Below, piece by piece: positions 1 to 44,367 of a stretch of DNA of 64,000 nt. The stretch is taken from positions 16,174 through 80,173 of the IMG/VR virus record IMGVR_UViG_3300035698_020096; one strand, 5' to 3'. Source of the stretch: a virus. The notes below the pieces were generated by a model. It made no database searches. It worked only from the letters and a program-made list of their open reading frames with translations, and was not told the origin of the DNA. The position numbers were made by a program, and so were the translations under genes. Positions within the stretch are counted from its first letter, which is position 1. Each line of letters begins with the position of its first letter.

Positions 1-3000
1 CTGACTCCCTATTCCTTTATCACTAATCCATGAATCTTCAAATCCCATCATTAGAGAAGCTATTAGTCCCTTACCTGTAATACCTCCCTGTTGCGTTTCT
101 AAACTACCTATAAGGGGTTCAAGGTACTTCTTATTACGAATAATAGTAGAACCATGAGAATAGAAATAGCTCTTGAGGTTAGAAGGACTGAATAAACCAA
201 AGACTTGACCTACATCTATATCCCCAGTAGCCCCTGCTTTATTCCTATTTAATTGTTCAGTTACATAAGAGAAGAAGTCTGTCTTACTTCCTGGTACTTG
301 ATATAGCTCCTCTAGACCAGTAAATTTAAGTACAGCTTTAGGTAGTCCTCCAGTACCTTCAACTCTCTTACCTCCACCTACCATAATGGAACGTAAATAT
401 ACCATTTCCCATAACAACTGGTTATTATCAGCATTACCCATCAGTTGTTTAGAATCAAGTACATACTCGACACTATTCTCTGAGGCTCTATACCAGGCCT
501 GTCTATCTAGTTTAGATACGTTAGGTAAATCATTAATAGTTCTAAAGTTATCGATAACTTCTGTGAGTGCCCCTACTTGGTCTCTAGAGTCAACTACTGA
601 TTTAGTAACATAATTACCTTCAGTATCTGAATAGGTATAGTATCTATCAAAACTATCTCCAAGAGTAGCCCTTACTAGCTCTAACTTAGCTTCTCCTGTA
701 AGCTTATCCATACTTACTATTTCTTTAGGAATACCTCCCCCTTGCTTCATCATTTCCTCAGCAGAACCCCAAACTAATACTCTATTAGTATCAGAGTCAA
801 AGGTAACTATATCTCCTCTATTTGCTAACATTACCCCTTTATGGCTCCATTCCTCTGATAGTTTAGAAGACTTCTGTCTCTTCTCACTCTTATCTATAAA
901 GCCACTCATAGTACCCATACGTCCTATTACCTCAGCTTGAGACACCTTATCTAATCTCTTCCAGTCATAGCCTACAGACCTTAATTTAGATTTAACGAAT
1001 TCTCTATCATCTGTACTAGAACCATATAAAGGATTAGCCCAAGCGTAGTCACTATAGTCCCCAGTGAGTTGAACTAAAACTATAGGGTCAAATCCTTCCT
1101 TATTACCAGTAAAACCTTTAATACCCCCAGCCATAGAGTCAGCTAATTTAGCTCTAGTTAAAAGTAGCTTTCTAGCTATAGAAGTAGACCCTGGTAGAAA
1201 CTCATTATCTAAGAATCCAAATTCATCCTTAAGTTCTTTCTTAGCTTCCTCAATTAGATTAGCTATTTCGCTATTAACAACTGTTCTAAAGCCTGCATCA
1301 CTAACTACCGCTGTATTTAAATCAGTACCTACAGTCGTCTCCACCCTACTCCACATAGTTCTAAGACTACCCATTAATTCTTCACTGTTTACAGATAGTC
1401 TTTCTAAGGAAGCCCTTTCAACTACTTTCTCAATAACTCTAGAAGGATTGTACATCCCTAGATTACTAGTACCCACTACATCCCTAAGTATTTCTACAGC
1501 TCGTTTAATTCCCCATGATTCCTTCTTAGCTAATTGAGACATTAGGTCTACTTTAATACCTGTAACTCTTTCATTAATTAGACCTGATACATCTCCTTTA
1601 GTAGTAAGACGATAAGATAGTTCTCTATCTAACTCAAACATAGGTCTACCTCCCAGAACATTCTTTAAACGTTGAGGTATCTGTGAAGCTTTCTTTGCTA
1701 CATTAAACGTATAGTTTATTGACTCATTTACAGTCTCATCTTTAAATGGAGTAGCATCTATTAAATCTTTAAAGTCTTTATTTAATCCATTAGGTAAAGC
1801 TTCCCCAGATTGGATTCTATCTACTAGTTCATCCGTATTAGCTATACCCAACGTTCTTAAAGATGACGAATATTTATCATACAGCAGTTCACTTATATAA
1901 GTAACATATTGGTCTCTAGTGTTTATATAACCCACCCCTGCAAATGAGGCCAGTTGCACTGAGCTTACATCTCCAGTAGGAGTTTTATTAATACCATACA
2001 CACTAAGTCCAGTAGTTTCTTGACTAGCTGATATACCACTACCGTCTGCTACTCCTCTAATAGCCCCTTCAGTTCCCTTACCTGTAGTATTAGCAGGACC
2101 AAAGATATAAGATTGAGCTAGAGCATATCTATAAAAAGCTTCACCTTTATTCAATTTATCTATAAATATTTGTTGATTATTATTAATACCGTATAAGGGA
2201 TTTTTAAACCATGCTTGAGATGTTCCATAGGTAGAAGCTCCAGATTGAGTAATAAAGGGTTCTAACATCCCGGCCTTTACTTCTTTAATATCTGACTTTA
2301 ATTTAGTGGCATATAGAAAGTCTTTTCTACTCTCTAATATCCCTAATGCAATATCGGATTGGAAGGTACTTACACTTTCCAATCCCATGTATCTATCGAA
2401 GGTTTCTCTAATAGCGCCTACAGCATCTTTCTTAAGTGACTCAAGAGCCGATCTTCTTTCGCGACTAACTTTAGGGTCAGTTATCTCTCTATTAACATCT
2501 CTAATTAACTCAAGATGACTTAGTACTGAACGTCTAAGAGCTAAGTCAGTATCTCCATATATTTGCTCCTTAGTAAGCCCTCTATTAGCTAATCCTTCCC
2601 CTTTAGCTAACTTATCATATATACCCCCTCCAGTAAGTTCAAGAGCTCTTTTAGAAGTACCACTTACCCTCTCTCCTAAATGTTTAGTAGTAAAAGTGGA
2701 TATAAGTTTAGATATTTCATAATCACTTAATGAATTATCTAATAGGAAAGTACCAGCACTTGAATCAGTACCTCCTGAAGCTATATGACCTCTAGATAGA
2801 TATTCTAGGTAGCCTAATCCAGCAGTAGCTAATCTAGTAGTTTGAGCATCGTACTGGCTTTCCTTTAGAGCTTTCATATAAGCCATCGGCTCAGCTACTA
2901 AAGTTCTATAAGTAGTCTCTGCTGCTAATGTACTAACTACATTTATTAACGAATCTACTGGACTTAATCTCAAAGCTTCTTTAGATTTAACTACTCGGGG

Positions 3001-6000
3001 GTTTAATTCATACTCCCCAGTTTCATCATTACGAACAAAGGAACCTTCTCCATAAGGTATTCCCCCTATATCTGTGTCAGTATTATTAACAAAGAGAGAG
3101 TTACCTATTACTTTATTCTGGTCAATCAAATATACAAAGCCCTGATTAGTTCCCATCCCTCCTTTTAAACTAGTTAGTCTAAACTTAATAGGATTAAATC
3201 CAACATTAGTATCTTGGAATCCTCTATATCCAACCATATCCGCTGGATTAATAGTGAGTTCCAACGCTAGTAAACTTCCTCCTTGTCCATATATATTCTT
3301 AACTCCCAGTCCCCCTGTATCTAAACCCATATCCTTATTTAATTGTTTAACTCTAGCTGTTATTTCAGCTATACCCAGAGCATTAACTTTATTCTCCCAA
3401 CTAGCTCTAGTTCCTTCAAGAGAAGTGTCAACATTACCTACAGTAGTTTGAGTCAATCTTCTCCATTCTCTTTCTCTATCCGTACCTTGCTGAGCATAGA
3501 AGTTCTCCAAATCTGCACCTAAATTCTCCTCTTCATTTCTATATAAGATTCCTTTAGATTTAGCATGCTCTCTCATCTCTCTAGCTAAGGCAATAACTCC
3601 TACTTCAGAACTAACAGCTTCCTTATCATCTCGACTAAATGCCATTGATTCAGAACCAAAGTTAGAGCTTCCAGTAATACTAGCTATATGTCTATATGTA
3701 TCTTCTCCAAGACCCATACCAGTTCTTTCAATAGCAAATACATTTTTAACGTGAGACATAGTTTCAGTAACACCGATAATGTTACCTCTAGTCATAGCAA
3801 GTAATTGCTTAACTGTTCTATCTGCTGCCTTACTAGCTACTGCTTTAGATTTAAACTTAGACCCTAAACCTAAACTATATTTCTCTTCTATGTTGCTAAG
3901 ACTATCTCTAGAATTAACCCCGGTTTCATCTAGTCCTAATACTTTGAGTAAACTATTTCTATTACCATGCTTACTAGTGAGTTCTTGAAGACTGCTATTA
4001 TATTCGGTCTCCATTCTCAGAGAACCAATCCTCCTATAATCTTCATTAGTAAAGTCAGATAAAGAGGGTCTTCCTTCTGTCCATCCTTTAGGTTTATATC
4101 TTCCATTTCCACTATCTACAGCAGCTTTACCTAATAGGTAATGAACCCTTTCTGTCATAGGCTCTAAGACTTTATCCCTATAGTTCCTAATATCAACAGA
4201 GATATAAGCTTGATTATTAATTAGTAAATCAAATAGATTCTCTTGTATTTCATTTCTATATATAGACCTTCTATTTGATTCTCTTTTACCTGTTAGTTCA
4301 TTAAGAGAAGTTTGCCGACTATTATCAGGTCCAAACTCCCCTCCAAAGTCTCCTCCCTTACCGTAGTACAAGTCATTGTCATATTGAAGTAACCATACTT
4401 GGTTTAGGTTCATATAGACTTCTACTCTTTTATCTGAACCCATCCCCCTCTTACCCTGAGCATAAGAAAGTATAGACCGTAAACCCTGACCTATGTCCCC
4501 CGCTAGTCCTACTTGGCCCCCAGTAAAAGCTTCACCCCCTGTTGCTCTTCTAATCCCTCCAATAGCTAATCCTCTAGTTTGGAGGAATAGATGAGTATCA
4601 ACATATTCCTTAGCTTTTTCTTCCTCTATAGAATCACTCTTTTTAGATAAACCTTTAGATTCAAGAGTACCTACATCTCTCATACTCATATAATCTCTAA
4701 GGTCAGCTCCAGTATCTCTATAGTTTTTATTTATAAGTCTTATCTTCTCAGTAATAGAAGCAGTACTATCAAATCCACTGGATACAGGGTTTAATATACT
4801 TCTCATTCGATTATGAAAGATAACTATTTCTTCATAGTTAGACCCTGCTTGCACTACTGAGTTACCTACTGGGGAAGTTAAGTTAAACGAACCCAACATT
4901 GCATATCTTTCAGTGGTATATGCCTTAGGGTGATACATGCCTTCTGACATCATCTCCAAGGTAAAAGAGGGAAGAAGTTTAGCTATCTTACTATTTATAT
5001 CTAAAGCCCTTTCTTCACTAGATATAGCAATCTTATTAGAAGCTGTAGCGCTTGCCTCTAAATCAAACTCTTTATCTAATATCTTCTTTTGAAGAATATA
5101 TAGTCTTTCCATAACCACTATATTAGGCCCTAGAATCTGGTGTCCTACCATATTTCTTCTATCCCCTTCAGTAGGGCCAGCTAGTCTTAATTGAAACTTA
5201 AACTCACCTCTAGCTATACGCCCACTTTCCCTTTCTAATTTCTTAACTAGTACATCAGCTACCGCTTTATTCTGCAGTTGAAATAAATCAATAGTTAATT
5301 CTTTCTCAGCACTTTCAATAAAGGCTACAGCTGAACGTATACCTGGTTTAGCTACATAATCTGTCTCTGTAAGTATCTGATTAGATACTTCTCTAACCCT
5401 CTCAGTTATATCGGTAAACTTCCCATATTGTCTATTAAGATTAGAAGACTCTCTACTTCTTATTAATTCTTGATGATATTCAGATACACGTCTAGTAGCT
5501 CCTACTTCTTCGGTAACTAATACATTATTCATTAACCAATTACCTGAAGCTATAGTTACTCTATCTCCACCCCATTGGTGTGAGTTATACCATCCCATTG
5601 GTTTAGTAACATATAACCCTCCATATAAAGATTTATTCCCTACTTGAGTCACATCATGTTTAAATAGATGTTGGTATGTTCCGGAAGAAACATAGCCTTC
5701 CCATTCTTCTCTTCTTCTATCCTGTTCTTTACTACTGAGAGTATCATCAAAGAAGCCTTTATCTAATCCAATATTAAAGTTACCTATAACTCTATTTATA
5801 ACCTTAGTACCACTTAAGGTCAAGTCAAACACATCCTGAGAGAAAGAAGAAAATGCGTTCCTACCTAAAGCTCTAAGGACTTCAGTCTGAGGGTCTATAT
5901 TACCTGTACTAACTGATTCAGTAGATAGCTTCTTCTGCCAACCCTTTCTATTTACTTCTCTCTTTTCACTAGTTAAACCTCTATATGAGCTTTGATATCC

Positions 6001-6135
6001 AACAATTAAATTACCAGATTCGTATGTATCTGTTCTTTCTTTATTCCATGAAAGATGGAAGTTAACCGCACCTCTAAGAGCATCATCAACCCCCATATTT
6101 CTAAATGCTGAATCATAATTCTGTATCAATGCCAT
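1..6135 (-). CDS. Giant (>2045 aa, runs off the left edge) multidomain protein: tandem PLD/HKD domains plus a putative two-barrel RNA polymerase beta-like region
   Basis: Hand translation from ATG at 6135 (MALIQNYDSAFRNMG...) finds no stop down to position 1. It contains FIESAEKELTIDLFQLQNKAVADVL, H402-PKAYTTE...GSFNLT...SNYEE and H795-VKNVFAIE...GSSNFG. The confidence value is for the ORF and PLD call; the RNAP assignment is weaker. Confidence 0.9.
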   Translation of the reverse strand, partial: MALIQNYDSAFRNMGVDDALRGAVNFHLSWNKERTDTYESGNLIVGYQSSYRGLTSEKREVNRKGWQKKLSTESVSTGNIDPQTEVLRALGRNAFSSFSQDVFDLTLSGTKVINRVIGNFNIGLDKGFFDDTLSSKEQDRRREEWEGYVSSGTYQHLFKHDVTQVGNKSLYGGLYVTKPMGWYNSHQWGGDRVTIASGNWLMNNVLVTEEVGATRRVSEYHQELIRSRESSNLNRQYGKFTDITERVREVSNQILTETDYVAKPGIRSAVAFIESAEKELTIDLFQLQNKAVADVLVKKLERESGRIARGEFKFQLRLAGPTEGDRRNMVGHQILGPNIVVMERLYILQKKILDKEFDLEASATASNKIAISSEERALDINSKIAKLLPSFTLEMMSEGMYHPKAYTTERYAMLGSFNLTSPVGNSVVQAGSNYEEIVIFHNRMRSILNPVSSGFDSTASITEKIRLINKNYRDTGADLRDYMSMRDVGTLESKGLSKKSDSIEEEKAKEYVDTHLFLQTRGLAIGGIRRATGGEAFTGGQVGLAGDIGQGLRSILSYAQGKRGMGSDKRVEVYMNLNQVWLLQYDNDLYYGKGGDFGGEFGPDNSRQTSLNELTGKRESNRRSIYRNEIQENLFDLLINNQAYISVDIRNYRDKVLEPMTERVHYLLGKAAVDSGNGRYKPKGWTEGRPSLSDFTNEDYRRIGSLRMETEYNSSLQELTSKHGNRNSLLKVLGLDETGVNSRDSLSNIEEKYSLGLGSKFKSKAVASKAADRTVKQLLAMTRGNIIGVTETMSHVKNVFAIERTGMGLGEDTYRHIASITGSSNFGSESMAFSRDDKEAVSSEVGVIALAREMREHAKSKGILYRNEEENLGADLENFYAQQGTDREREWRRLTQTTVGNVDTSLEGTRASWENKVNALGIAEITARVKQLNKDMGLDTGGLGVKNIYGQGGSLLALELTINPADMVGYRGFQDTNVGFNPIKFRLTSLKGGMGTNQGFVYLIDQNKVIGNSLFVNNTDTDIGGIPYGEGSFVRNDETGEYELNPRVVKSKEALRLSPVDSLINVVSTLAAETTYRTLVAEPMAYMKALKESQYDAQTTRLATAGLGYLEYLSRGHIASGGTDSSAGTFLLDNSLSDYEISKLISTFTTKHLGERVSGTSKRALELTGGGIYDKLAKGEGLANRGLTKEQIYGDTDLALRRSVLSHLELIRDVNREITDPKVSRERRSALESLKKDAVGAIRETFDRYMGLESVSTFQSDIALGILESRKDFLYATKLKSDIKEVKAGMLEPFITQSGASTYGTSQAWFKNPLYGINNNQQIFIDKLNKGEAFYRYALAQSYIFGPANTTGKGTEGAIRGVADGSGISASQETTGLSVYGINKTPTGDVSSVQLASFAGVGYINTRDQYVTYISELLYDKYSSSLRTLGIANTDELVDRIQSGEALPNGLNKDFKDLIDATPFKDETVNESINYTFNVAKKASQIPQRLKNVLGGRPMFELDRELSYRLTTKGDVSGLINERVTGIKVDLMSQLAKKESWGIKRAVEILRDVVGTSNLGMYNPSRVIEKVVERASLERLSVNSEELMGSLRTMWSRVETTVGTDLNTAVVSDAGFRTVVNSEIANLIEEAKKELKDEFGFLDNEFLPGSTSIARKLLLTRAKLADSMAGGIKGFTGNKEGFDPIVLVQLTGDYSDYAWANPLYGSSTDDREFVKSKLRSVGYDWKRLDKVSQAEVIGRMGTMSGFIDKSEKRQKSSKLSEEWSHKGVMLANRGDIVTFDSDTNRVLVWGSAEEMMKQGGGIPKEIVSMDKLTGEAKLELVRATLGDSFDRYYTYSDTEGNYVTKSVVDSRDQVGALTEVIDNFRTINDLPNVSKLDRQAWYRASENSVEYVLDSKQLMGNADNNQLLWEMVYLRSIMVGGGKRVEGTGGLPKAVLKFTGLEELYQVPGSKTDFFSYVTEQLNRNKAGATGDIDVGQVFGLFSPSNLKSYFYSHGSTIIRNKKYLEPLIGSLETQQGGITGKGLIASLMMGFEDSWISDKGIGSQ

Positions 6136-6196
6136 ATTCTATATCTCTCTAAATCTTTAATATATTCTCGTTTAATCTAAAGGGACTTTCTCATGC

Positions 6197-6281
6197 ATAA
6201 CATGAATTTAGTTAACTAGTCACCTACATTCACCCATTTTATATCCCACGGCTAAAGCACATGGGTTTTACTGTGCTTTCT
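6197..6281 (-). mobile_element. Orphan IS200/IS605-family left-end remnant
   Basis: Minus strand reads TTAT|AGAAAGCACAGT-AAAA-CCCATGTGCTTTAGCCGTGGG (bulged hairpin). It is an 84-bp inverted homolog of 63760-63843, with the first 43 bp identical. No transposase or right end is nearby. Confidence 0.7.
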
Positions 6282-6472
6282 ATAATTCCATATAGCCATA
6301 TCAAGCCACCATTAGTTCAACATGAGAGTCTGAGTCTTAGTTCCTTTTTCAATTAATATTTAATATTCTTCCCAATCTTTCATTCATATAAATGATTTTA
6401 ATACTTCCCACATATATTTAATAACATCTGTTATATTTAAATAGACCAATCAATTATTTATCAAACAACATT

Positions 6473-6919
6473 ATGGCACCAGAACGTTCAAATCTATTAA
6501 CTATTGAATTCCCTGAGTTTACTCTACCTTCTGGTAAAGTAGTAGCATTTCGTTCCATTACCTTCCGAGAACGTCGAAAGTTAATGAAAGATTATAAAGG
6601 TAGAGAGGAAGGTTATGCAGCAGAAGACTTGTTTGCTGCGTATGCTTTATCTAAAGAAGATGGTATGCCTGTAGCAGACGATTGGGCTATTGATGGTGGA
6701 GTTATTGCTAGATTAGACCATTGGTCTATGAAAGACTTTGCTTATTATCTTGAAGTATTTGTTAGAACCATTGGTTTAGAAGAAGACGAACGTACTAGTG
6801 CTGAATCCGCAGCAAAAAAGATGGTGGCAGCAAGTGGTACTCAGCAAGTGAATACTACCAATCAATCTTTACCCAAGGGGCTCAAAGTACAACCATCTGG
6901 TGGTACTACCGGTTTATAA
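6473..6919 (+). CDS. Tail assembly chaperone (G-type, short form)
   Basis: FTLPSGKVVAFRSITFRERRKL N-terminus resembles myophage tail chaperones; in-frame slippery heptamer A AAA AAG at 6814-6820. Confidence 0.65.
   Translation: MAPERSNLLTIEFPEFTLPSGKVVAFRSITFRERRKLMKDYKGREEGYAAEDLFAAYALSKEDGMPVADDWAIDGGVIARLDHWSMKDFAYYLEVFVRTIGLEEDERTSAESAAKKMVAASGTQQVNTTNQSLPKGLKVQPSGGTTGL
6814..6858 (+). other. Programmed -1 ribosomal frameshift site with a downstream hairpin
   Basis: GCA AAA AAG. The -1 frame opens just after TGA 6802-6804 and stays open to 7440. Imperfect stem GTGGTA-C-TCA/TGA-A-TACTAC at 6834-6858. Confidence 0.75.
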
Positions 6920-7440
6920 ATCCTTCATTAATATATAATCAATCCACAAGGTTAGGCGGTATTTTAGATTACTCATTTGAACCTAAGAATCTAAGTCGAT
7001 ATCTAAGCTGCCCTTATCTAGCTAAATACATATCTGTACTACATATATCCGATAATACTTATGTAACTGCTATACGAAAGCTAGGCTTAATTCCTAATAT
7101 CCTATTCTTCTCTAGAAGATATATATCAGCTGAGTTCTATGTTATGAAAGCATTAATTATAGATGCTATAGCAGATAATATTAGGAAGCAAGCCCATCTT
7201 GATGATTGGATAAGAGTAGCTAATATCTGTAATATTGGCTTACTAGATGGGTTTGGATTCTTAGACCTCTGTGAGTTCTGGAGAACCGCTCTATTAAAGA
7301 GTATTAATGATTATATTAAACAACAGAATGATTCTCAGAAGGAGGTAATGAGATCTATAGAAAGTAAGATGGATAAAGATATTTCACATAATAGTGTTTT
7401 CTCTAGTATTCCTAGTACTAAACACATGTTAGGTAATTAG
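6820..7440 (+). CDS. Frameshifted extension of the tail chaperone (GT-type fusion, about 322 aa); includes track ORF 7144..7440
   Basis: Frame reads DGGSKWYSASEYYQS...AEFYVMKALIID with no stop, and with no ATG until 7144. Confidence 0.75.
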   Translation, partial: DGGSKWYSASEYYQSIFTQGAQSTTIWWYYRFINPSLIYNQSTRLGGILDYSFEPKNLSRYLSCPYLAKYISVLHISDNTYVTAIRKLGLIPNILFFSRRYISAEFYVMKALIIDAIADNIRKQAHLDDWIRVANICNIGLLDGFGFLDLCEFWRTALLKSINDYIKQQNDSQKEVMRSIESKMDKDISHNSVFSSIPSTKHMLGN

Positions 7441-10453: not shown

Positions 10454-10583
10454 AAAACTAGATACTTTAAATACTTAATGTCAATATTAGGGAATTAAAT
10501 TAGTTATTAGGGATACTTAAGATGTTCACATGTATAAATCATATATCCAATAAGCTAGGAAATAATCATATATAAATAAGAGC

Positions 10584-12059
10584 ATGTTTCCTAAAAGTCA
10601 CGTATTGTCTCAGAGTGGAGGTGTACTAAAAGTACCTCTAGCTAAATTAGGTAAATGGTTTCATAAAGCATATGGAGTAGTAGAGTTCACAAGAGAAGAC
10701 TTTAAAACTATCATTGATAACTTTAGAGATAATCTCTTAGGCCATAAGCCTTATCTAACCTTCGGTCATCTGCAAGAGGATTTCTCAGTTGACTCACATA
10801 AGAAGAAAGGGGATATGATAGGGTTTGCTGAAGAAACTGATACTCTTTATGGGTTATTCAAGGCCACTGAGGACGCTTATAAGAGTGTACAGTCAGGAGA
10901 ATATGAATTCTCTTCTGGAGAGTTCATAAGAAACTATTTAGATAAGGATTCAGGTGAAACTAAAGGTACCCTTGTTTTAAGAGTTGCTTTAACCAACTCT
11001 CCTTTTATTCCCAATCTAGATAGAGTTCAAGCCTTCTCTCAATCTGAGAAAGAAGAGTCTACCCAAGTATTTACCATGAAGATTGATATGACAGAAGAAA
11101 CCAGTAATAATACAAACCCCAATGTTCCCAATACTGAAGCAGTACCTACTGAACAGAAGATGGATAAAGACTTCGTGGAACAAGTTGATAAAGTTGAAGA
11201 TCCGCTCACTAAGGATGTAGTCTCTGATACTAATCTAGATAATGATAAAGTAACTCCTCATGTAGATGTTAAAGATGAGCCTACAGTCGTTACTCCTGAG
11301 GTATTAAACTCACCTCAAGCTCCTGTTTCCCCGGTTACTGCTAAAGAAAAATCAGTTGTACCTACAGCGGAAAGTCTGTCTGTAGCTTCTACAGAAACTG
11401 AGGATAATAAACAATCAGATGAATCATTAAGCAATCCATCCTCCATTAAAACTCCTGCACCAAATATGAATACAGCTGCTCCCGTTGCCCCTTCCCCGGT
11501 ACTTAATGTACAACAAGGTTTATCTCAATCTCATCTAGATATTGATACTCTTGTTGGAGATATCACTAATAAGCTAGAGAAGCGTTATGAACGTACAGTT
11601 AATGAGTTATCTACTTTAGTTAAAGATTTACAAACTCAATTAGTTGCTAAGCAACAAGACCTAGAGAAAGTAAAGACTGTTACTCAAGCCCAAGCTTTCT
11701 CCTTATCTCAAGCTCAGCAACAAGTACTTACTGCCCAAGAAAAGGTTACTGCAGAATATTTAATGGGAGAAGGAGTATCTCCTGCTCTTATTCAACGATT
11801 CTCTCAAGTTAGAGAAGCTATCATTAGTAATTCTCAAGTAATCCGTTTATCTGATAGTGAAGGTCAAAATGAAAGAGAAATTTCTGTAATTCAAGCTCTT
11901 AGTGATTTAATTGTAGATGCAACTAATACTCCTGCTATCAACTTAAGTCAAGAAGGTACTTCTTACTATCGTCGTCATGATTCTAATGGATTACTAACTA
12001 TTGCAGAAAAGACCATTAGAGAGAATCGTCAAAGAGCTCAACAAATGAGTAAGAAATAA
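10584..12059 (+). CDS. Prohead protease/scaffold fusion (Mu gpI-like)
   Basis: G+W.H...FT, YEFSSGEF and VALTNSPFI motifs, then an acidic Pro-rich linker and coiled coil; directly upstream of the capsid gene. Confidence 0.8.
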   Translation: MFPKSHVLSQSGGVLKVPLAKLGKWFHKAYGVVEFTREDFKTIIDNFRDNLLGHKPYLTFGHLQEDFSVDSHKKKGDMIGFAEETDTLYGLFKATEDAYKSVQSGEYEFSSGEFIRNYLDKDSGETKGTLVLRVALTNSPFIPNLDRVQAFSQSEKEESTQVFTMKIDMTEETSNNTNPNVPNTEAVPTEQKMDKDFVEQVDKVEDPLTKDVVSDTNLDNDKVTPHVDVKDEPTVVTPEVLNSPQAPVSPVTAKEKSVVPTAESLSVASTETEDNKQSDESLSNPSSIKTPAPNMNTAAPVAPSPVLNVQQGLSQSHLDIDTLVGDITNKLEKRYERTVNELSTLVKDLQTQLVAKQQDLEKVKTVTQAQAFSLSQAQQQVLTAQEKVTAEYLMGEGVSPALIQRFSQVREAIISNSQVIRLSDSEGQNEREISVIQALSDLIVDATNTPAINLSQEGTSYYRRHDSNGLLTIAEKTIRENRQRAQQMSKK

Positions 12060-13691: not shown

Positions 13692-15206
13692 ATGCCATCT
13701 TTATCAACTGGTTTTATCAACTCAAACCAAATCTTAGCAGGTGCTCGTAGACTCGGTACTATCATGCCTTATGTAGTAGCAGGTGTTTTACAACAACCCC
13801 GTTTTGTACTTCATGATACCGCTACTTTGACCGCAGCTATGGCTGACTATGCTACATGGTTAGCTTCAGCTACTACTTCGGCTGCTCCTCATATCATCTC
13901 TTTAGTTGGGGGTAGTATTGAGTTTGCAGGTAATGTATTTCCTCTAGATACCGGTCCGGGTTCAGGAGCTAATACCTCTGGTAACGTTAATATTGACCTC
14001 GATTATCTATTCTCTCAGCTATGTGTTAATACTGGTGGAGCTCCGGAGTATATACTAGCTGCGGTTCCTCGTTATAACGAACCGATGAGTCAAGCTGAAG
14101 CAGAGGAAATGGGTCTTAACTATTACCTATCCCTTACTGCATCAGGTGAATTTGTAGCCCGTAAGTTCATGGATCCTAAGTGTGCTGCCAACCTTTGTGA
14201 AGTAGGGGGCTGGATGCAGTTAAAACAGCGTATCATTGATGGTTGTGCTTCTTGCGAAGATTACGAATTATTTAATAGCTGCAATGACGATAATTTGTGC
14301 GAACCCTCAATGCTATGTATTCGAGGTGTAGCTTTTATCCTTGTTGAGATTCAACATGTAGGTAATTGCTGCAACCCCTTAGGTAATTACACCAAGTGCG
14401 AATTCGAGAAGCTTAAAGCTACCGTATTCAACCTTGATTCTATCCGTCTATCTCCCGACCCTGTAGCTAACACAGCTGGAACTGATGTTGGATCTACCGA
14501 CCCTGACATATATACTCTTAATGAGTTCTTTGGTTCAGTAGCAGTACCAACTCCATTCCCCTTAGATACAACTGGAGTTGGAGGTACTAATAGTTCCTTC
14601 TACGGTGTCCCTTCTGTGGGTACAGATTATGGAGATGCTAATGGTCCTGGTACTCAACTATGGAAGATCAGTTCTATTACTTTCTATCCCACTTTAGATG
14701 AAGCTCTAAACTGTGGTCAAGGTAGAACTCTTCAATCTCCTGATAGTATGGCAGAGGTTAGAGCTTTCCTTGCTAAGCTTACTTATGAGAATCCAGATGC
14801 TAATCCTTGCGACCCAAATCCATGTGGTCTTGGATGGGATGAAGCAGAGATTCGTCTAGTAGCCAGGGAATATGACTTAAGCTGCTGCACTCAACCTCAA
14901 GCGGATCAAGGTAACTTCCCTCAGATTCGTCGATTTATCACTAAGAGAGATGCAGTAGGTACTCCTTGGTTAGGTCGAGTCAATCCTATTTATAGTGACC
15001 AAGCTGCTATGTCACCTCGACTAGGTATAACAAGTCCTTCCTTTGGTATGCACTTATACGCTAATCCCGTAGCCCTACTTAAATTCTCTATTATGACGAA
15101 AGTAGACCCATTGGCTCCGGCTATTGATGGTGTATCTGACCCGCAAGCTAATGTTATTATTGACCCTGATTCCTTACAAATAGTACCTGGTTCTTTTCTA
15201 GGTTAG
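13692..15206 (+). CDS. Cys-rich second head/decoration protein
   Basis: Follows the capsid gene with similar codon bias; 16 Cys including two CC pairs. Function inferred from position. Confidence 0.55.
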   Translation: MPSLSTGFINSNQILAGARRLGTIMPYVVAGVLQQPRFVLHDTATLTAAMADYATWLASATTSAAPHIISLVGGSIEFAGNVFPLDTGPGSGANTSGNVNIDLDYLFSQLCVNTGGAPEYILAAVPRYNEPMSQAEAEEMGLNYYLSLTASGEFVARKFMDPKCAANLCEVGGWMQLKQRIIDGCASCEDYELFNSCNDDNLCEPSMLCIRGVAFILVEIQHVGNCCNPLGNYTKCEFEKLKATVFNLDSIRLSPDPVANTAGTDVGSTDPDIYTLNEFFGSVAVPTPFPLDTTGVGGTNSSFYGVPSVGTDYGDANGPGTQLWKISSITFYPTLDEALNCGQGRTLQSPDSMAEVRAFLAKLTYENPDANPCDPNPCGLGWDEAEIRLVAREYDLSCCTQPQADQGNFPQIRRFITKRDAVGTPWLGRVNPIYSDQAAMSPRLGITSPSFGMHLYANPVALLKFSIMTKVDPLAPAIDGVSDPQANVIIDPDSLQIVPGSFLG

Positions 15207-29316: not shown

Positions 29317-30564
29317 ATGAGTAAGCGAGAAAAGTACGAGAAGTTATTAAATAATGTAAATGTAGTAGCTGCATTACATATGATTAATCAAGTTGAATCT
29401 AATTATGGTTCAGATTCATACGGAGTTATATTTGGGGGTAGTACCCCTCCATTAGGTACAGACCATCCTAGAATAAGCGTACCTAGGAATGATGGTACAG
29501 GGAGAACTAGTAATGCTGCGGGTAGATATCAATTCATGTCTTTCACCTGGGATGAAGTTAATCAAAATATTGGACCTTTAGATTTCTCCAATCCTAGGCA
29601 TCAAGATATAGCTGCTATTGAACGTATAGAGGTAAGAGGAGTATTAGATGCTGTTATTAAAGGAGATATAGAATTCGCTCTTACAGGAGGACATCCTGCT
29701 TCTATGGGAGTAGATGCTTGTTACTTATATCCTTCTGGGATGGCTTGTGAATGGGCTGGTTTAGCCCCTAGTAGGTATGGTCAAGGTGACGCTACTATAG
29801 CTCAGAATATAGCTGACTTCGAGAAGTTTAAAGGAGTACCTTTACCTAAAGGAGGGGGTACTCCCACTGATACAAGCAGTAATGTACCTACTACACCTGG
29901 AGATGGTAATCAAACAGCTATGCAAGCTTTCTCTGCATCAGTAAAGTATGGGGCCTCATCTATCGTTGGATTCTTAGGAGATACTAAACGAGGTATTCTC
30001 TGTCATCAGATAAGGTTATGTAAAGTAGAGGCAGGAAATCCACCTACTTCTGTTATGAAAGTAATGGGAGGTGAAGGTAACTTAACAGGCTTCACTCCTG
30101 GTATGAATAGTACAGCTACAAATGCTAATTCAGGAGGTGCTCTTAAAGCTGGAGAGTTTACACCTAGACCGGGAGCTTATATAAGTTCTGCACCGGGGGT
30201 ACCAGTAAACTCTCCTTTTGGCATGAGAGGGGGACGCATGCACAATGGAGTGGACCAAGCTGCGCCGGAAGGTACTCCCTTACTAGCCTCAGGGGATGGG
30301 ACAGTAACTGTAACTGGATATGAACCAGGTTATGGAAACCATGTTTTTATTAAACACTCCGATGGGCTTACTACTACCTATAACCATATTTTAGATGGAG
30401 GTACTAAAGTAAAGGCAGGTCAAAAAGTAAAACAAGGAGATGTTATTGCTCTAATGGGTACTACAGGTAGAAGTTCAGGACCTCATATTCACTTTGAATT
30501 CTGGAGAGGAGACCCGGATGCTGGTACTCCCATTGACCCTCAAACTATTATTCCCGACCTCTAA
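29317..30564 (+). CDS. Lambda-R-like lysozyme/transglycosylase + M23 endopeptidase
   Basis: VES...AAGRYQFMSFTW...FSNPRHQD; HNGVD, YNH and HIHFE zinc motifs. Confidence 0.9.
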   Translation: MSKREKYEKLLNNVNVVAALHMINQVESNYGSDSYGVIFGGSTPPLGTDHPRISVPRNDGTGRTSNAAGRYQFMSFTWDEVNQNIGPLDFSNPRHQDIAAIERIEVRGVLDAVIKGDIEFALTGGHPASMGVDACYLYPSGMACEWAGLAPSRYGQGDATIAQNIADFEKFKGVPLPKGGGTPTDTSSNVPTTPGDGNQTAMQAFSASVKYGASSIVGFLGDTKRGILCHQIRLCKVEAGNPPTSVMKVMGGEGNLTGFTPGMNSTATNANSGGALKAGEFTPRPGAYISSAPGVPVNSPFGMRGGRMHNGVDQAAPEGTPLLASGDGTVTVTGYEPGYGNHVFIKHSDGLTTTYNHILDGGTKVKAGQKVKQGDVIALMGTTGRSSGPHIHFEFWRGDPDAGTPIDPQTIIPDL

Positions 30565-42500: not shown

Positions 42501-43255
42501 ATGGTCTCTCTAGTTTCTACCCTGCTCTCAATAGTATAGCTATGAGCTTTTCTCTTACAGGTAGTAAGCACTTCAACGTAGATAAATGGGAAAAAGAGCT
42601 AGAGATGTCTCGCTGGGATGGAGAATCTCTTTCTACTTATAAAGCTAGAGTTAGAGATTATCTATTAAATAAGACTATAGACAGAATAGGTATTCAAAAC
42701 CTATTTAATTTATACGATATTGATTTAATAAACATATCAGATATTACTCTTCAATCCTTTGATTCCTATACTCAACCCCAAAGTTCTTTTAACTCAGTAA
42801 TTAGAGATAGTAATCTTCTAGTAGCCAGTGAAGTTAGAGATAACTTTATAGCTAATGTACCTACAGTATTTATTACTATTAATAAGCCCGTATTAGATGT
42901 AATAGGTAATGAAGTATCTAGATTAACTCCTGTAGGAGTAATAGTTAAATTCATTGAAAAGGTAGATTATTTATCTTGCTCTAAACCTATTGATATAAAT
43001 AGAAAAGTTTCTTCCCTAGAAATAGCTGTACCTTCCTCAGCTCCAGAAGTATTAGTAGAACCCTTATGCTGTGCGGAGGAAGCCTTATGCGGTCCTATTA
43101 CATATAGAGTTAGACTACAGCACGTATCTGATTCTCCCTTATATTTATATAAGGAAGGAGATTCTTTCTATGCATCTGAATCTAGCCAGATGGGAAATCC
43201 ACTTACTATGATTCCATCTTATACAGCTAACAAATTATTTCTTTATAAACCATGA
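39590..43255 (+). CDS. Large baseplate wedge protein: Cys/acidic repeats, helical middle, C-terminal GpI/gp48-like domain
   Basis: Follows J; LKKMIPTGFGWF, VDKWEKELEMSRWDGESLSTYKARVR and RLTPVGV motifs. Confidence 0.65.
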   Translation: MLKDTCASSLVTLSQLNINTFNSEYKLDITVGREYGPLKLISGHVNIPIYFSTNQVFHSSCFTVGCFDSSGIWSTKPVDYKEELSNCLIDGYETCFEEYEAVCSVQVPYSENVVYEPDVFDLGIYQLHNGYRTEYRSGLCYEAPLIETPFHPLEELFDIDIFPTTSSICNKFTLNKDYNLSIATYTADVFEEGVYTNCDYHFERGTELVVCLNGPYEPGIYEDCTYNKTFHVSSYNPSKCLDECVISPLEPIAAYSSSSSGLTLDQAYNCDASFPSSKTYLTAEGKNLLILEDNCINSYCQEDGLYEKRRFYYDLDMKPYVEEVFEEGIYVDKCLTSSHQIETIFNPNFCCLTRDDLYPLAYLSAQLNEFLQAHNLTPNSEYYPYTTTERKEIIDCSSCYTPLVKSIEGVDRLTRFNGYQEEVFFNGLPTPLGALVVDIGYIYPGTYEFVLLKKDVPINNDGTFSSEVLAPSGIKAVRLKAITRNREVVLGMSFGDNPLSPLLIKTYSENTPLSFPTNHVILEDLAITLTLVSLSGYKSTLDNCPTNNIGMYYLEPYMKALLEDNLTKLSTLINRDINSPIYNAIPSKLYPDSTYESLYQRKQLDKSCYVEGIYKAECALIYDDPTMIGDDFLCLTECFSKEEDITPILPLDTDLRSIAWLIISYTTYLDVFPKSVLEEEYDTAATRLGEYLMSRLTPFLIDEGNETSHTSTNIMACLAFIKLYELTASPTYLNKAADLYISINDYLYSFLDRSFIHEASTQVFSTEATIYGLIFSLWTNQEDKVESLLTLMKLRRKSFRDVYRLAITNEEGLITDLEGTPILIHQTDSYELIKEGYFDLLIPFYTAPQEAGYSLADTVRLMILSDYVLKATEAKGFNIGFSNHIDIYQEEVRSNPKLQTSTWFASCLTDIFINHSLITPSSLKDLQTLIFNREYVTDQLKKMIPTGFGWFHKNALGKQSNLGRMLRSFSYGLSSFYPALNSIAMSFSLTGSKHFNVDKWEKELEMSRWDGESLSTYKARVRDYLLNKTIDRIGIQNLFNLYDIDLINISDITLQSFDSYTQPQSSFNSVIRDSNLLVASEVRDNFIANVPTVFITINKPVLDVIGNEVSRLTPVGVIVKFIEKVDYLSCSKPIDINRKVSSLEIAVPSSAPEVLVEPLCCAEEALCGPITYRVRLQHVSDSPLYLYKEGDSFYASESSQMGNPLTMIPSYTANKLFLYKP

Positions 43256-44367
43256 GTATTCCTAAACTACTAATAGTAGGAGCAGGACCTAGAGGTATAG
43301 GTCTTGCCCTTAGAGCTATTCATAGTGGAATAGAAACCACTATAGTAGACCCCTTCCCTTTAAAGACTTGGACTCCTCCTAATATGCTTATAGATATGAG
43401 TATGAGAAGTCCGATAGGATTTGATTTAGTTACCTTTTGTTCTGACCTTAAAGAATATAGTCTTAGTTATTATCTAGGTTCTTATAATGATATACAAGAA
43501 CAGAAGGAAATAGAGGTTCAGCATCAACCCATAAGTAGAGATATATTTGTTAAATACTTAAATCATATATGGGATTATGTGGGACCAAGAGTTAATTATA
43601 TAGATAAACCTATTACTCAAATAGGGAAGGATTATGTAATAGCAGGGGATAGAAAGATAGTTACTGATAACATAGCTATTGCTCTAGGTTCTCCTTCTAA
43701 ACTTAATGTTCCTAATTACGCTAGACCCTTTGTTTCCTCAGATAATTTATTAGGAACTAAAGAAATAATACTAAATAAACCACTGGGACTAACTATAGCC
43801 GTAATAGGTTCAGGTCAGAGTTCAGCTGAACATGTGGATTACTTAACTCCTGATAATAAGGTTATATGGGTAACCAATAAGGAAACTAAAGTACACCTCT
43901 ACCCGGTTCCCCCTTATTCTATTTGGGGACCAAAGTCAGCTTTAGGAGATTATTTTAGTAGATTAAAGGAAAGTGATAAAAAGGCTGCTTTAAAATATAT
44001 GAAAGAAGTAGCTGGGTGGACTCCTTCTATTACCCCCTCTATAGCTAAATCTCTTGAGGAGAAATCTCACTTAATCACTAAGGTAATGCCTCAAGATATA
44101 AATACCTATATATCAAAAGTAGATAAGGTTCTCCTATGTATTGGATTTAACACCTCTTTAGATAACATCCCCTTTTCTATTCCTATTACTAAGGAAATTG
44201 TTAAATCAGACTATCCTGAATTAAATAACTTTAAGTCTCCTGAAGGTATATATTTTACTGGGGACCTAGCTAAGTTTTATGATGGACCTAGACAAGGTTC
44301 CCTTATTTCTATTGGAATTACATCTAAGACAATAGTAGAAGACATTCTATCAAATCATTATGGATAA
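43252..44367 (+). CDS. FAD/NAD(P)H-dependent Lys/Orn N-monooxygenase-like oxidoreductase
   Basis: IVGAGPRG, W...ML...MRS, ISRDIFVKYL, AVIGSGQSSAE, LCIGF and GIYFTG motifs. Confidence 0.8.
   Translation: MSIPKLLIVGAGPRGIGLALRAIHSGIETTIVDPFPLKTWTPPNMLIDMSMRSPIGFDLVTFCSDLKEYSLSYYLGSYNDIQEQKEIEVQHQPISRDIFVKYLNHIWDYVGPRVNYIDKPITQIGKDYVIAGDRKIVTDNIAIALGSPSKLNVPNYARPFVSSDNLLGTKEIILNKPLGLTIAVIGSGQSSAEHVDYLTPDNKVIWVTNKETKVHLYPVPPYSIWGPKSALGDYFSRLKESDKKAALKYMKEVAGWTPSITPSIAKSLEEKSHLITKVMPQDINTYISKVDKVLLCIGFNTSLDNIPFSIPITKEIVKSDYPELNNFKSPEGIYFTGDLAKFYDGPRQGSLISIGITSKTIVEDILSNHYG

Follow-up and report, generated by a model that had tools for sequence, protein, structure and literature searches.

Does the giant minus-strand open reading frame (ORF) at the left edge of this viral DNA encode a cryptic RNA polymerase (RNAP)? 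The stretch analysed here, referred to as the window, comprises 64,000 nucleotides (bases 16174-80173) of the 80,173-base IMG/VR virus record IMGVR_UViG_3300035698_020096, for which CheckV gives a completeness of 47%; contig coordinates are window coordinates plus 16173. The ORF continues beyond the window, and in the record it occupies contig positions 7939-22308 (locus L003), read from 22308 down to 7939, specifying 4,789 amino acids (aa) with a stop 8,234 bases to the left of window base 1. Window bases 180-1100, corresponding approximately to aa 1679-1985 of the giant protein, had been flagged as holding four RpoB-like motifs of a diverged single-chain virion RNAP. A complete two-barrel RNAP is very probably hidden in the giant protein, and we consider it likely that the ORF encodes it as a single chain laid out like beta fused to beta′, and that this enzyme is packaged and reads the first phage genes; on sequence grounds, aa 1690-1995 are the best candidate for its beta-like half. 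Feature coordinates are collected in Table 1.

A family of giant phage proteins

A phmmer search with aa 1640-2060 alone against 1.84 billion proteins returned 38 representatives, nearly all of them 3,400-5,400 aa long. The family comprises at least 38 clusters at 50% identity, and conservation is given throughout from a 43-sequence alignment. In 35 of the 38 representatives a GD[FYWL]DGD motif lies 1,000-1,900 aa beyond the matched stretch, in most cases with GK[TS]YN about 300 aa further on. Because the two co-occur across the representatives, both the flagged stretch and the catalytic loop are constant components of a single family. The three representatives without GD[FYWL]DGD are 384, 1,869 and 2,381 aa long and are probably cut; for the two longer ones, truncation at contig ends is one possibility and a genuine split, with the beta-like half as a separate protein, another.

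Six full-length relatives were found in a word-indexed search. With aa 3300-4000 as query, tblastn identified ten phage records, all of them Microcystis phages of the Ma-LMM01/MaMV group plus Microcoleus phage My-WqHQDG. With aa 1640-2060 the same type of search against 50,697 phage records gave no match, though family members are present there and were found with the catalytic part, and a search of viral contigs for related loci with aa 1640-2060 likewise returned nothing. Ma-LMM01 gp080 (YP_851094, 3,562 aa) and its MaMV and Microcoleus-phage homologues are true family members, with all motifs and the same gene position beside head and tail genes, but have only 26-31% identity to the giant protein over the catalytic part. 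The homologues are labelled hypothetical in GenBank, while the UniProt-derived label of gp080 is PLD phosphodiesterase domain protein. The giant gene adjoins, divergently, a module of portal, capsid and sheath genes, an arrangement that is the same in Ma-LMM01. These sheath, portal and capsid genes lie in the window and mark a contractile-tailed phage. The window's capsid protein matches ten phage records at 42-48% identity; since these are the same ten that the catalytic part matched, the window belongs to the Ma-LMM01/MaMV-type contractile-tailed lineage.

Motifs of the beta-like stretch

All four motifs named in the original prediction are present at the residues it gave, on the minus strand and in the frame of the ORF starting at window base 6135. 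In motif 1, PIVLVQLTGDYSDYAWANPLYG, G1692, D1696 and N1701 are each kept in 43/43 sequences and P1702 in 41/43, with the family consensus hhhhQ(L/M)xGx(Y/F)(S/T)D(Y/T)xxxNPx(Y/F)G. Motif 2 is less strictly kept (G1774 in 34/43; D1775 in 33/43, with Glu in four more) and has the consensus GD(I/V)hx(F/Y)D. The basic loop of motif 3, RSIMVGGGKRVEGTGGLPKAVLK, has the consensus RSxxxGG(R)RxE(G/S)xxxxLxK(G/A)V, in which R1924, L1931 and K1933 are each found in 42/42 sequences and E1926 in 36/43. Motif 4, VFGLFSPSNLKSYFYSHG, follows the consensus G(L/I)xNPSN(L/F)KS(Y/F)xxxHG, with K1988, H1994 and G1995 each in 42/42, S1989 in 40/43, N1986 in 39/43 and P1984 in 27/43. One claim had to be revised: K1923, put forward as the key basic residue, occupies a variable position (R in 29 sequences, K in 2, another residue in 12), and it is the neighbouring R1924 that is invariant.

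These residues stand out against the rest of the chain. Only 73 of the 4,789 positions (1.5%) are at least 90% conserved, and 15 of them fall within aa 1692-1995 (G1692, D1696, N1701, P1702, S1757, N1905, R1924, L1931, K1933, G1980, N1986, K1988, S1989, H1994 and G1995). Upstream of R3470, the conserved charged residues D1696, R1924, K1933 and K1988 alone fit the pattern of an Asp followed by a basic pair. Formulated as D, 29-300 aa, K/R, 5-10 aa, K, 20-70 aa, K/R, this pattern arose in 1.0% of residue-type permutations over the conserved positions and in 0.1% with uniform placement, figures that are merely indicative because the windows of the pattern were set post hoc. We propose that D1696 is the counterpart of E. 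coli beta D814 (Rpb2 D837), and K1988 that of beta R1106 (Rpb2 R1020). A further motif, K-x-S-Q-I-P-Q-R-L-K-N-x-x-G-x-R, precedes the stretch, with K1482, Q1485, Q1488, R1489, K1491, N1492 and G1495 each conserved in at least 90% of sequences; a tie between it and the NMQRQAVP region of beta is speculation.

The beta′-like part and the universal residues

The original prediction had staked its case partly on a catalytic DxDGD somewhere in the remainder of the same ORF or its neighbours, and one lies at aa 3531-3535 of that ORF, so that this sequence half of the proposed test came out in its favour. Within LTMNLGDFDGDQYT, the three Asp and the Gly of DFDGD are each kept in 40/40 aligned relatives and the preceding NLG is likewise invariant; the local NLGDFDGDQ resembles NADFDGDQM of beta′. 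Upstream, R3470 is accompanied by Pro at P3472 (25/43) and P3473 (37/43). Motifs resembling switch 2, the funnel, the bridge helix and the trigger loop were assigned by eye against E. coli, and of these the switch-2-like motif is partly conserved, less than the other beta′-side motifs. Between it and R3470 lies the helical insertion listed in Table 1, whose length varies among relatives and thereby accounts for a large share of the spread in size within the family (3,400-5,400 aa).

Ruprich-Robert and Thuriaux identified eight residues common to every two-barrel RNAP, namely Rpb2 D837, K979 and K987 and Rpb1 R446, P448 and three Asp (PMC2919709). All eight would have invariant counterparts in the giant protein, in the right order, with Arg for the first Lys, the Pro one place further along, and no Glu before the beta-side Asp. 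The sequence criterion for the two-barrel superfamily is an Arg and a Pro 35-60 aa before DxDGD and a basic pair 5-8 aa apart in the beta-type barrel; the giant protein has the DxDGD, the Arg and Pro upstream of it, the beta-side Asp and the basic pair, here 9 aa apart.

Order and spacing compared with E. coli

Located on the real E. coli sequence, the corresponding beta motifs are GYNFED (809-814), GDILVGK (880-886), GDKMAGRHGNKGV (1063-1075) and DIVLNP (1095-1100), and the order and spacing of the giant-protein residues match those of beta D814, K1065, K1073 and R1106. From the acidic motif to the GD turn there are 79 aa here (D1696-D1775) and 67 aa in E. coli (D814-D881); from the turn to the first basic residue 149 aa (D1775-R1924) and 184 aa (D881-K1065); from the first to the second basic residue 9 aa (R1924-K1933) and 8 aa (K1065-K1073); and the last step of the beta-side series is 51 aa here and 27 aa in E. 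coli. The gap of 227 aa from D1696 to K1923 is as originally claimed, and that from D814 to K1065 is 251 aa, for which about 250 had been given. Residue classes at the key places agree with those of E. coli WNGYNFEDSILV, GDILVGK, GDKMAGRHGNKGV and LNPLGVPSRMN, and K1933 is followed by (G/A)-V as E. coli K1073 is by G-V. On the beta′ side, DxDGD and the bridge-helix Lys are separated by 305 aa in the giant protein (D3531-K3836) and by 329 aa in E. coli (D460-K789).

Candidate counterparts of the acidic motif, the GD turn, the basic loop, NP...basic, switch 2, R-x-P, NxDFDGDQ and bridge-helix KTxN follow one another in the order and spacing of E. coli RpoB/RpoC, from which the giant protein differs in having both halves in one chain and no known alpha or omega partners. 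This layout resembles a beta-beta′ tandem rather than the compact one of crAss-like enzymes or QDE-1. The diverged single-chain virion RNAP that had been predicted is thus supported as a polymerase by DFDGD and the conserved motifs, whereas the likeness to the crAss-like layout was not borne out.

Table 1. Features of the giant ORF and its neighbour. Positions are window coordinates unless marked as contig or locus coordinates, which lie outside the window.
Feature	Position	Strand	Residues and remarks
Giant ORF, window part	1..6135	-	first 2,045 of 4,789 codons; no in-window stop
First HKD-type PLD-superfamily motif	4876..4932	-	H402-x-K404...G-S-x-N-L-T (GSFNLT)
Second HKD-type PLD motif	3646..3753	-	H795-x-K797...G-S-S-N825 (S823-x-N825)
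K-x-S-Q-I-P-Q-R-L-K-N-x-x-G-x-R motif	1645..1692	-	about 200 aa before D1696; strongly conserved
Beta-like motif 1	1021..1086 (D1696 = 1048-1050)	-	aa 1684-1705; hydrophobic strand, then G1692-x-Y-S-D1696-Y...N1701-P1702
Beta-like motif 2	796..828 (D1775 = 811-813)	-	aa 1770-1780, LANRGDIVTFD; G1774-D1775 turn, compared with GDILVGK of beta
Beta-like motif 3 (basic loop)	325..393 (R1924 = 364-366, K1933 = 337-339)	-	aa 1915-1937; GG(R/K)R1924-x-E...L-x-K1933-(G/A)-V, compared with GDKMAGRHGNKGV of beta
Beta-like motif 4	151..204 (K1988 = 172-174)	-	aa 1978-1995; G-L-x-(N/S)-P-S-N1986-L-K1988-S...H1994-G1995, compared with LNPLGVPSRMN of beta
Switch-2-like motif	contig 14209-14319	-	aa 2664-2700; G-x-R-x-Q-x-x-x-G-x-K...G-x-V...AASFxVP at aa 2670-2700
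Helical insertion of about 700 aa	locus L003 about 2800-6400	-	aa 2720-3440; between switch-2-like motif and R3470; predicted helical
R3470	contig 11899-11901	-	40/40; 61 aa before D3531
DFDGD	contig 11704-11718	-	aa 3531-3535; local NLGDFDGDQ
LGKTYN	contig 10792-10809	-	aa 3834-3839; bridge-helix-like, resembles LKTANSGY; conserved
QLLRDGIKPK	contig 10531-10560	-	aa 3917-3926; trigger-loop-like (QLLRDxIKPK), resembles QLTMRTFH; conserved
Hydrophobic segment	outside window	-	near aa 4492; C-terminal part of giant protein
148-aa ORF	6473..6919	+	divergent from giant gene; homologous to Ma-LMM01 gp081 (E 6e-12)

A working model and its fit to expression

What the sequences show is the motifs, their invariance, order and spacing and their joint presence in one family; a barrel fold for aa 1690-1995, catalysis, packaging in the virion and a role in early-gene transcription we infer, and we propose the following mechanism. 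The stretch aa 1690-1995 would form a beta-like double-psi barrel, in which D1696 would help to hold the second catalytic Mg, R1924 and K1933 would form the basic loop touching the RNA 3′ end and the incoming nucleoside triphosphate, and K1988 would replace the funnel Arg. A beta′-like barrel would be formed by aa 2664-3540, comprising the switch-2-like G-x-R-x-Q...G-x-K, the helical insertion, R3470-S-P-P and the Mg-binding D3531-F-D-G-D3535, with LGKTYN (aa 3834) possibly serving as bridge helix and QLLRDxIKPK (aa 3917) as trigger loop downstream. The polymerase would be flanked by a PLD-type phosphodiesterase domain at the N terminus and by hydrophobic segments at the C terminus. The protein would be made with the structural genes, packed in the virion and delivered with the DNA, after which the enzyme would transcribe the first phage genes without the host polymerase.

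Published transcription data bear on the last steps. For Ma-LMM01 gp080 no reads were recorded at 0-1 h; the gene is expressed along with most structural genes and assigned to the 'middle' class (PMC5780444 Table S3). Silence at 0-1 h and expression with the structural genes, together with a gene position by the structural module, fits a packaged and ejected enzyme, as for crAss gp66 and P23-45 gp96.

Evidence weighing against a packaged polymerase

A number of observations count against this assignment. In sequence, the family has S/T/N-D where RNAPs have ED, so that the Glu before the beta-side Asp is missing; the first basic residue is Arg and not Lys (E. coli K1065); and the invariant Pro stands at R+3, not R+2. 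The basic pair of QDE-1 is R738 and K743, with R738 an Arg at the place where the giant protein too has Arg, and both QDE-1 and YonO-like proteins are without a Glu next to the beta-side Asp (PMC2919709). In the literature on Ma-LMM01, sigma-70-like motifs were found before all gene classes, and all classes were concluded to depend on host sigma-70 (PMC5780444). We found no virion proteome for any relative.

Searches for sequence or profile similarity, which brought out no significant likeness to any RNAP family, also count against it. Pfam gave no RNAP family on the giant protein (E-values up to 10) or on 12 relatives (E up to 1), and PF00562 (RNA_pol_Rpb2_6) had no match in the whole virus record. 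Sequence searches of the PDB with the giant protein and with a 12-member family profile yielded just one RNAP match with E of 10 or less, an insignificant one to an archaeal clamp construct (E 3.3). Against gammaproteobacterial RpoB/RpoC alignments of 45 sequences, HHalign recovered only the DFDGD patch (P 0.005) and nothing for the beta-like stretch, a comparison of little power because the target profiles are narrow (effective number of sequences about 2.2); with the family profile against phi14:2 gp66 it aligned nothing, the DFDID of gp66 included. No RNAP family was found in a PHROG search of the giant protein, the one real match being phrog_31006 (function unknown), with a profile length equal to Ma-LMM01 gp080, and a search of the ESM Atlas gave no usable match. 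Absence of a Pfam score is usual for phage single-chain RNAPs; the P23-45 study describes many RNAP families without significant similarity outside the DxDxD region (PMC10770324).

The structure models offer a mixed picture. An AlphaFold2 model of aa 1640-2060, built from a 22-row alignment, has a mean predicted local distance difference test (pLDDT) value of only 62, so that the structural evidence is weak, with values of 70-87 around D1696 and 60-83 around R1924-K1988. In model numbering, the G1692...D1696 element connects the strand at 46-49 to that at 58-61, the GD turn falls between those at 129-132 and 137-141, R1924 is in strand 283-287 and K1933 starts strand 293-299, a modelled strand pattern that is compatible with a double-psi barrel. 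When the model was compared with 350,542 PDB chains using Foldseek, ranks 1-11 were all bacterial or plastid RNAP beta chains, aligned over 308-417 columns, and RNAP beta was the family predicted in advance. To be set against this, the matches are weak (E 0.1-0.3, template modelling score about 0.13), and the eleven chains are mutual homologues and therefore count as one weak match. The structural check proposed for the original prediction thus placed RNAP beta at the top of the ranking but, at E of about 0.1 and pLDDT of 62, did not demonstrate a barrel.

VIA-align over 48,161 representatives found none at Z of at least 5. It lists residues 914-1066 of phi14:2 gp66 (6VR4) with Z 3.3 over 83 residues at a root-mean-square deviation of 3.9, a region that ends 29 residues before the Connector at 1095 that joins the two barrels of gp66. 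Re-examination of the Foldseek matches with VIA-align gave no support, its list being filled by a small insert domain (model residues 104-283), and a structure search of BFVD returned only a fragment of Ma-LMM01 gp080 (E 7e-8). In a second AlphaFold2 model, which covers aa 2655-3854, pLDDT stays under 50 throughout aa 3465-3541, leaving the catalytic DFDGD region unfolded; the insertion was modelled as helical bundles, and Foldseek matched generic helical proteins only. As this model failed at the invariant DFDGD, models from shallow alignments have little power in either direction, and a poor one does not speak against a barrel. A complex prediction of the beta-like stretch with two beta′-like barrel pieces and Mg scored 0.01 against a mark of 0.32, with the partner's own fold uncertain, and supports neither outcome.

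Alternative explanations

The giant protein could be a two-barrel polymerase in which aa 1690-1995 are some other conserved domain, with the second barrel elsewhere in the chain (e.g. near aa 2198-2320) or in another protein. The models and searches above, which do not demonstrate a barrel fold for aa 1690-1995, leave room for this, as does the separation of about 1,500-1,550 aa between the two parts, compared with about 140 aa between the barrels of known single-chain enzymes. Once the 700-aa variable insertion is discounted, however, that distance is the one of a beta-beta′ tandem, and the four residues to be expected all occur in the flagged stretch, canonical in both order and spacing, with RNAP beta as the best Foldseek match of its model (E of about 0.1). 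Among residues at least 80% conserved over aa 2000-3440 there is a second conserved patch, with R2198, D2208 and Q2212 followed by S2302-x-S-K2305...E2317-x-Q (Q2319). We rejected it as a site for the second barrel since it has a single invariant basic residue (K2311 varies), and its order of acid to base does not fit. On balance we regard a misplaced beta-like half as unlikely. A polymerase that is active but stays inside the cell, reading middle or late genes, is unlikely as well. The 'middle' expression class of gp080 would suit it, and the case for packaging is an indirect one, but the known giant fusion polymerases of N4, crAss-like phages (gp66) and P23-45 (gp96) are virion proteins, the giant gene lies in a structural module, and C-terminal hydrophobic segments and a PLD domain are typical of ejected proteins. 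In addition, a non-virion enzyme for middle genes would be expected early, so the silence of gp080 at 0-1 h counts against it.

The enzyme might also have two barrels without being a DNA-dependent transcriptase; it would then belong with RNA-dependent polymerases (QDE-1/YonO type), with primase-like enzymes or with PolD-type DNA polymerases. The missing Glu beside the beta-side Asp is what the family has in common with QDE-1 and YonO-like proteins. Against this, the switch-2-like and funnel-Arg-like motifs are conserved, the former in part, and such motifs have been tied to DNA-dependent enzymes (PMC2919709), and the bridge-helix KTxN and the beta/beta′-like spacing point to the multisubunit-type clade, making such an activity very unlikely in our view. 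The preferred explanation remains a packaged DNA-dependent RNAP with its beta-like half at aa 1690-1995.

Comparison with known phage polymerases

A close parallel is gp96 of Thermus phage P23-45 (PMC10770324), another giant tailed-phage protein (5,002 aa): its cryptic two-barrel RNAP came to notice through a conserved DFDGD alone, with no further similarity to RNAPs that could be detected, and the chain also holds membrane-type segments. As proposed here, it is delivered with the DNA and reads pre-early genes; it is fused to a tape measure, a role that is only suspected for the giant protein. The polymerase of gp96 is compact and N-terminal (aa 327-1124), while here the motifs span about 2,300 aa with a 700-aa insertion in the beta′-like barrel; the giant protein furthermore comes from a contractile-tailed phage, carries a PLD domain and has no detected sequence similarity to gp96. 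As proposed for the giant protein, gp66 of crAss-like phage phi14:2 (PDB 6VR4; bioRxiv 10.1101/2020.03.07.982082) is a large protein holding a single-chain two-barrel RNAP among domains without known homologues, and it is packaged in the virion; it differs in having DFDID instead of DFDGD, a connector of about 140 aa between the barrels, and a short-tailed phage as host genome. The virion RNAP of coliphage N4 (about 3,500 aa; PMC13434306) is likewise giant, packed in the capsid and ejected for early transcription, but it is a T7-like right-hand polymerase of unrelated fold.

A literature search, with most subscription journals outside its scope, found no report of such an enzyme in Ma-LMM01-type phages. 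The MaMV-DH01 paper describes a genome without an RNAP (PMC9927357), and the P23-45 paper and its supplements do not mention Ma-LMM01-type phages.

PLD domain, tape-measure question and neighbouring genes

In its N-terminal part, the giant protein has the two HxK(x)4D...GSxN motifs by which the PLD superfamily is recognised, and both HKD motifs are conserved in the family. Among 12 relatives, four match Pfam PLDc_2 (best E 9e-7) and three match PLDc. The window's own giant protein has no Pfam PLD match and has Glu at the place of the Asp of the HKD motif. The family profile aligns this motif to the vaccinia K4 nicking-joining enzyme and to PLD4 exonuclease. At the other end of the chain, hydrophobic segments occur at a conserved relative place in five family members.

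A slippery heptamer with an open -1 frame is a hallmark of G/GT-type tail assembly chaperones, whose usual place is beside the tape measure. In the 148-aa ORF next to the giant gene, an A_AAA_AAG heptamer lies in frame at 6814-6820 and the -1 frame is open over 6805-7440; this may be such a chaperone pair. Also in favour of a tape-measure part in the giant protein is the gene content of the tail region on the plus strand, where no helical, tape-measure-like gene was seen and the interval from the tube-like gene (21457-22245) to the hub/spike genes (region to 26901) holds only a 94-aa ORF and a 693-aa protein. The latter (22695-24776), which matches no family, was considered as the tape measure and set aside, as its sequence is not helical-looking and it sits at the expected hub position. 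Against a tape-measure part, the giant gene is divergent from the chaperone-like ORF and not downstream of it; tape-measure families did not match the giant protein, which met only PHROG families of unknown function. We take a tape-measure part to be possible but doubtful. Equally tentative is the fullest version of our model, in which the protein injected by Ma-LMM01-type phages is a multi-enzyme chain of about 0.5 MDa, combining a PLD phosphodiesterase, a beta-beta′ RNAP and a tape-measure or membrane-pore part, that would be threaded through the tail and start transcription independently of the host polymerase.

Three other genes in the tail region are worth recording. In the spike gene, a full Amidase_3 domain (E 1e-42) is combined with a region matching Phage_base_V weakly. 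A 415-aa protein (29317-30564, plus strand) has lysozyme-like and M23 peptidase-like parts and matches many endolysin and tape-measure-tip PHROGs; it is one of several cell-wall enzymes near the tail-tip genes. A 371-aa flavoprotein of the lysine/ornithine N-monooxygenase type (43252-44367, plus strand; PF13434, E 1e-10) occupies an odd place among baseplate and fibre genes.

Significance

Virion-borne single-chain two-barrel RNAPs have so far been established only in crAss-like phages and P23-45. If our assignment is true, the giant protein would represent a third independent lineage; contractile-tailed phages would gain their first member, and a motif spacing like that of a full beta-beta′ tandem would be seen for the first time in such an enzyme. 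If it is also ejected, it would show that the multisubunit-type layout can exist as one such chain. The family comprises over 40 diverse sequences and includes at least one cultured phage, which makes it a directly testable case. Ma-LMM01 and MaMV are the model phages of toxic Microcystis blooms, and a packaged polymerase would change the view of their early program and of their escape from host defences; if it is ejected with the DNA and starts phage transcription, it would overturn the published picture of bloom-controlling cyanophages that depend wholly on host sigma-70.

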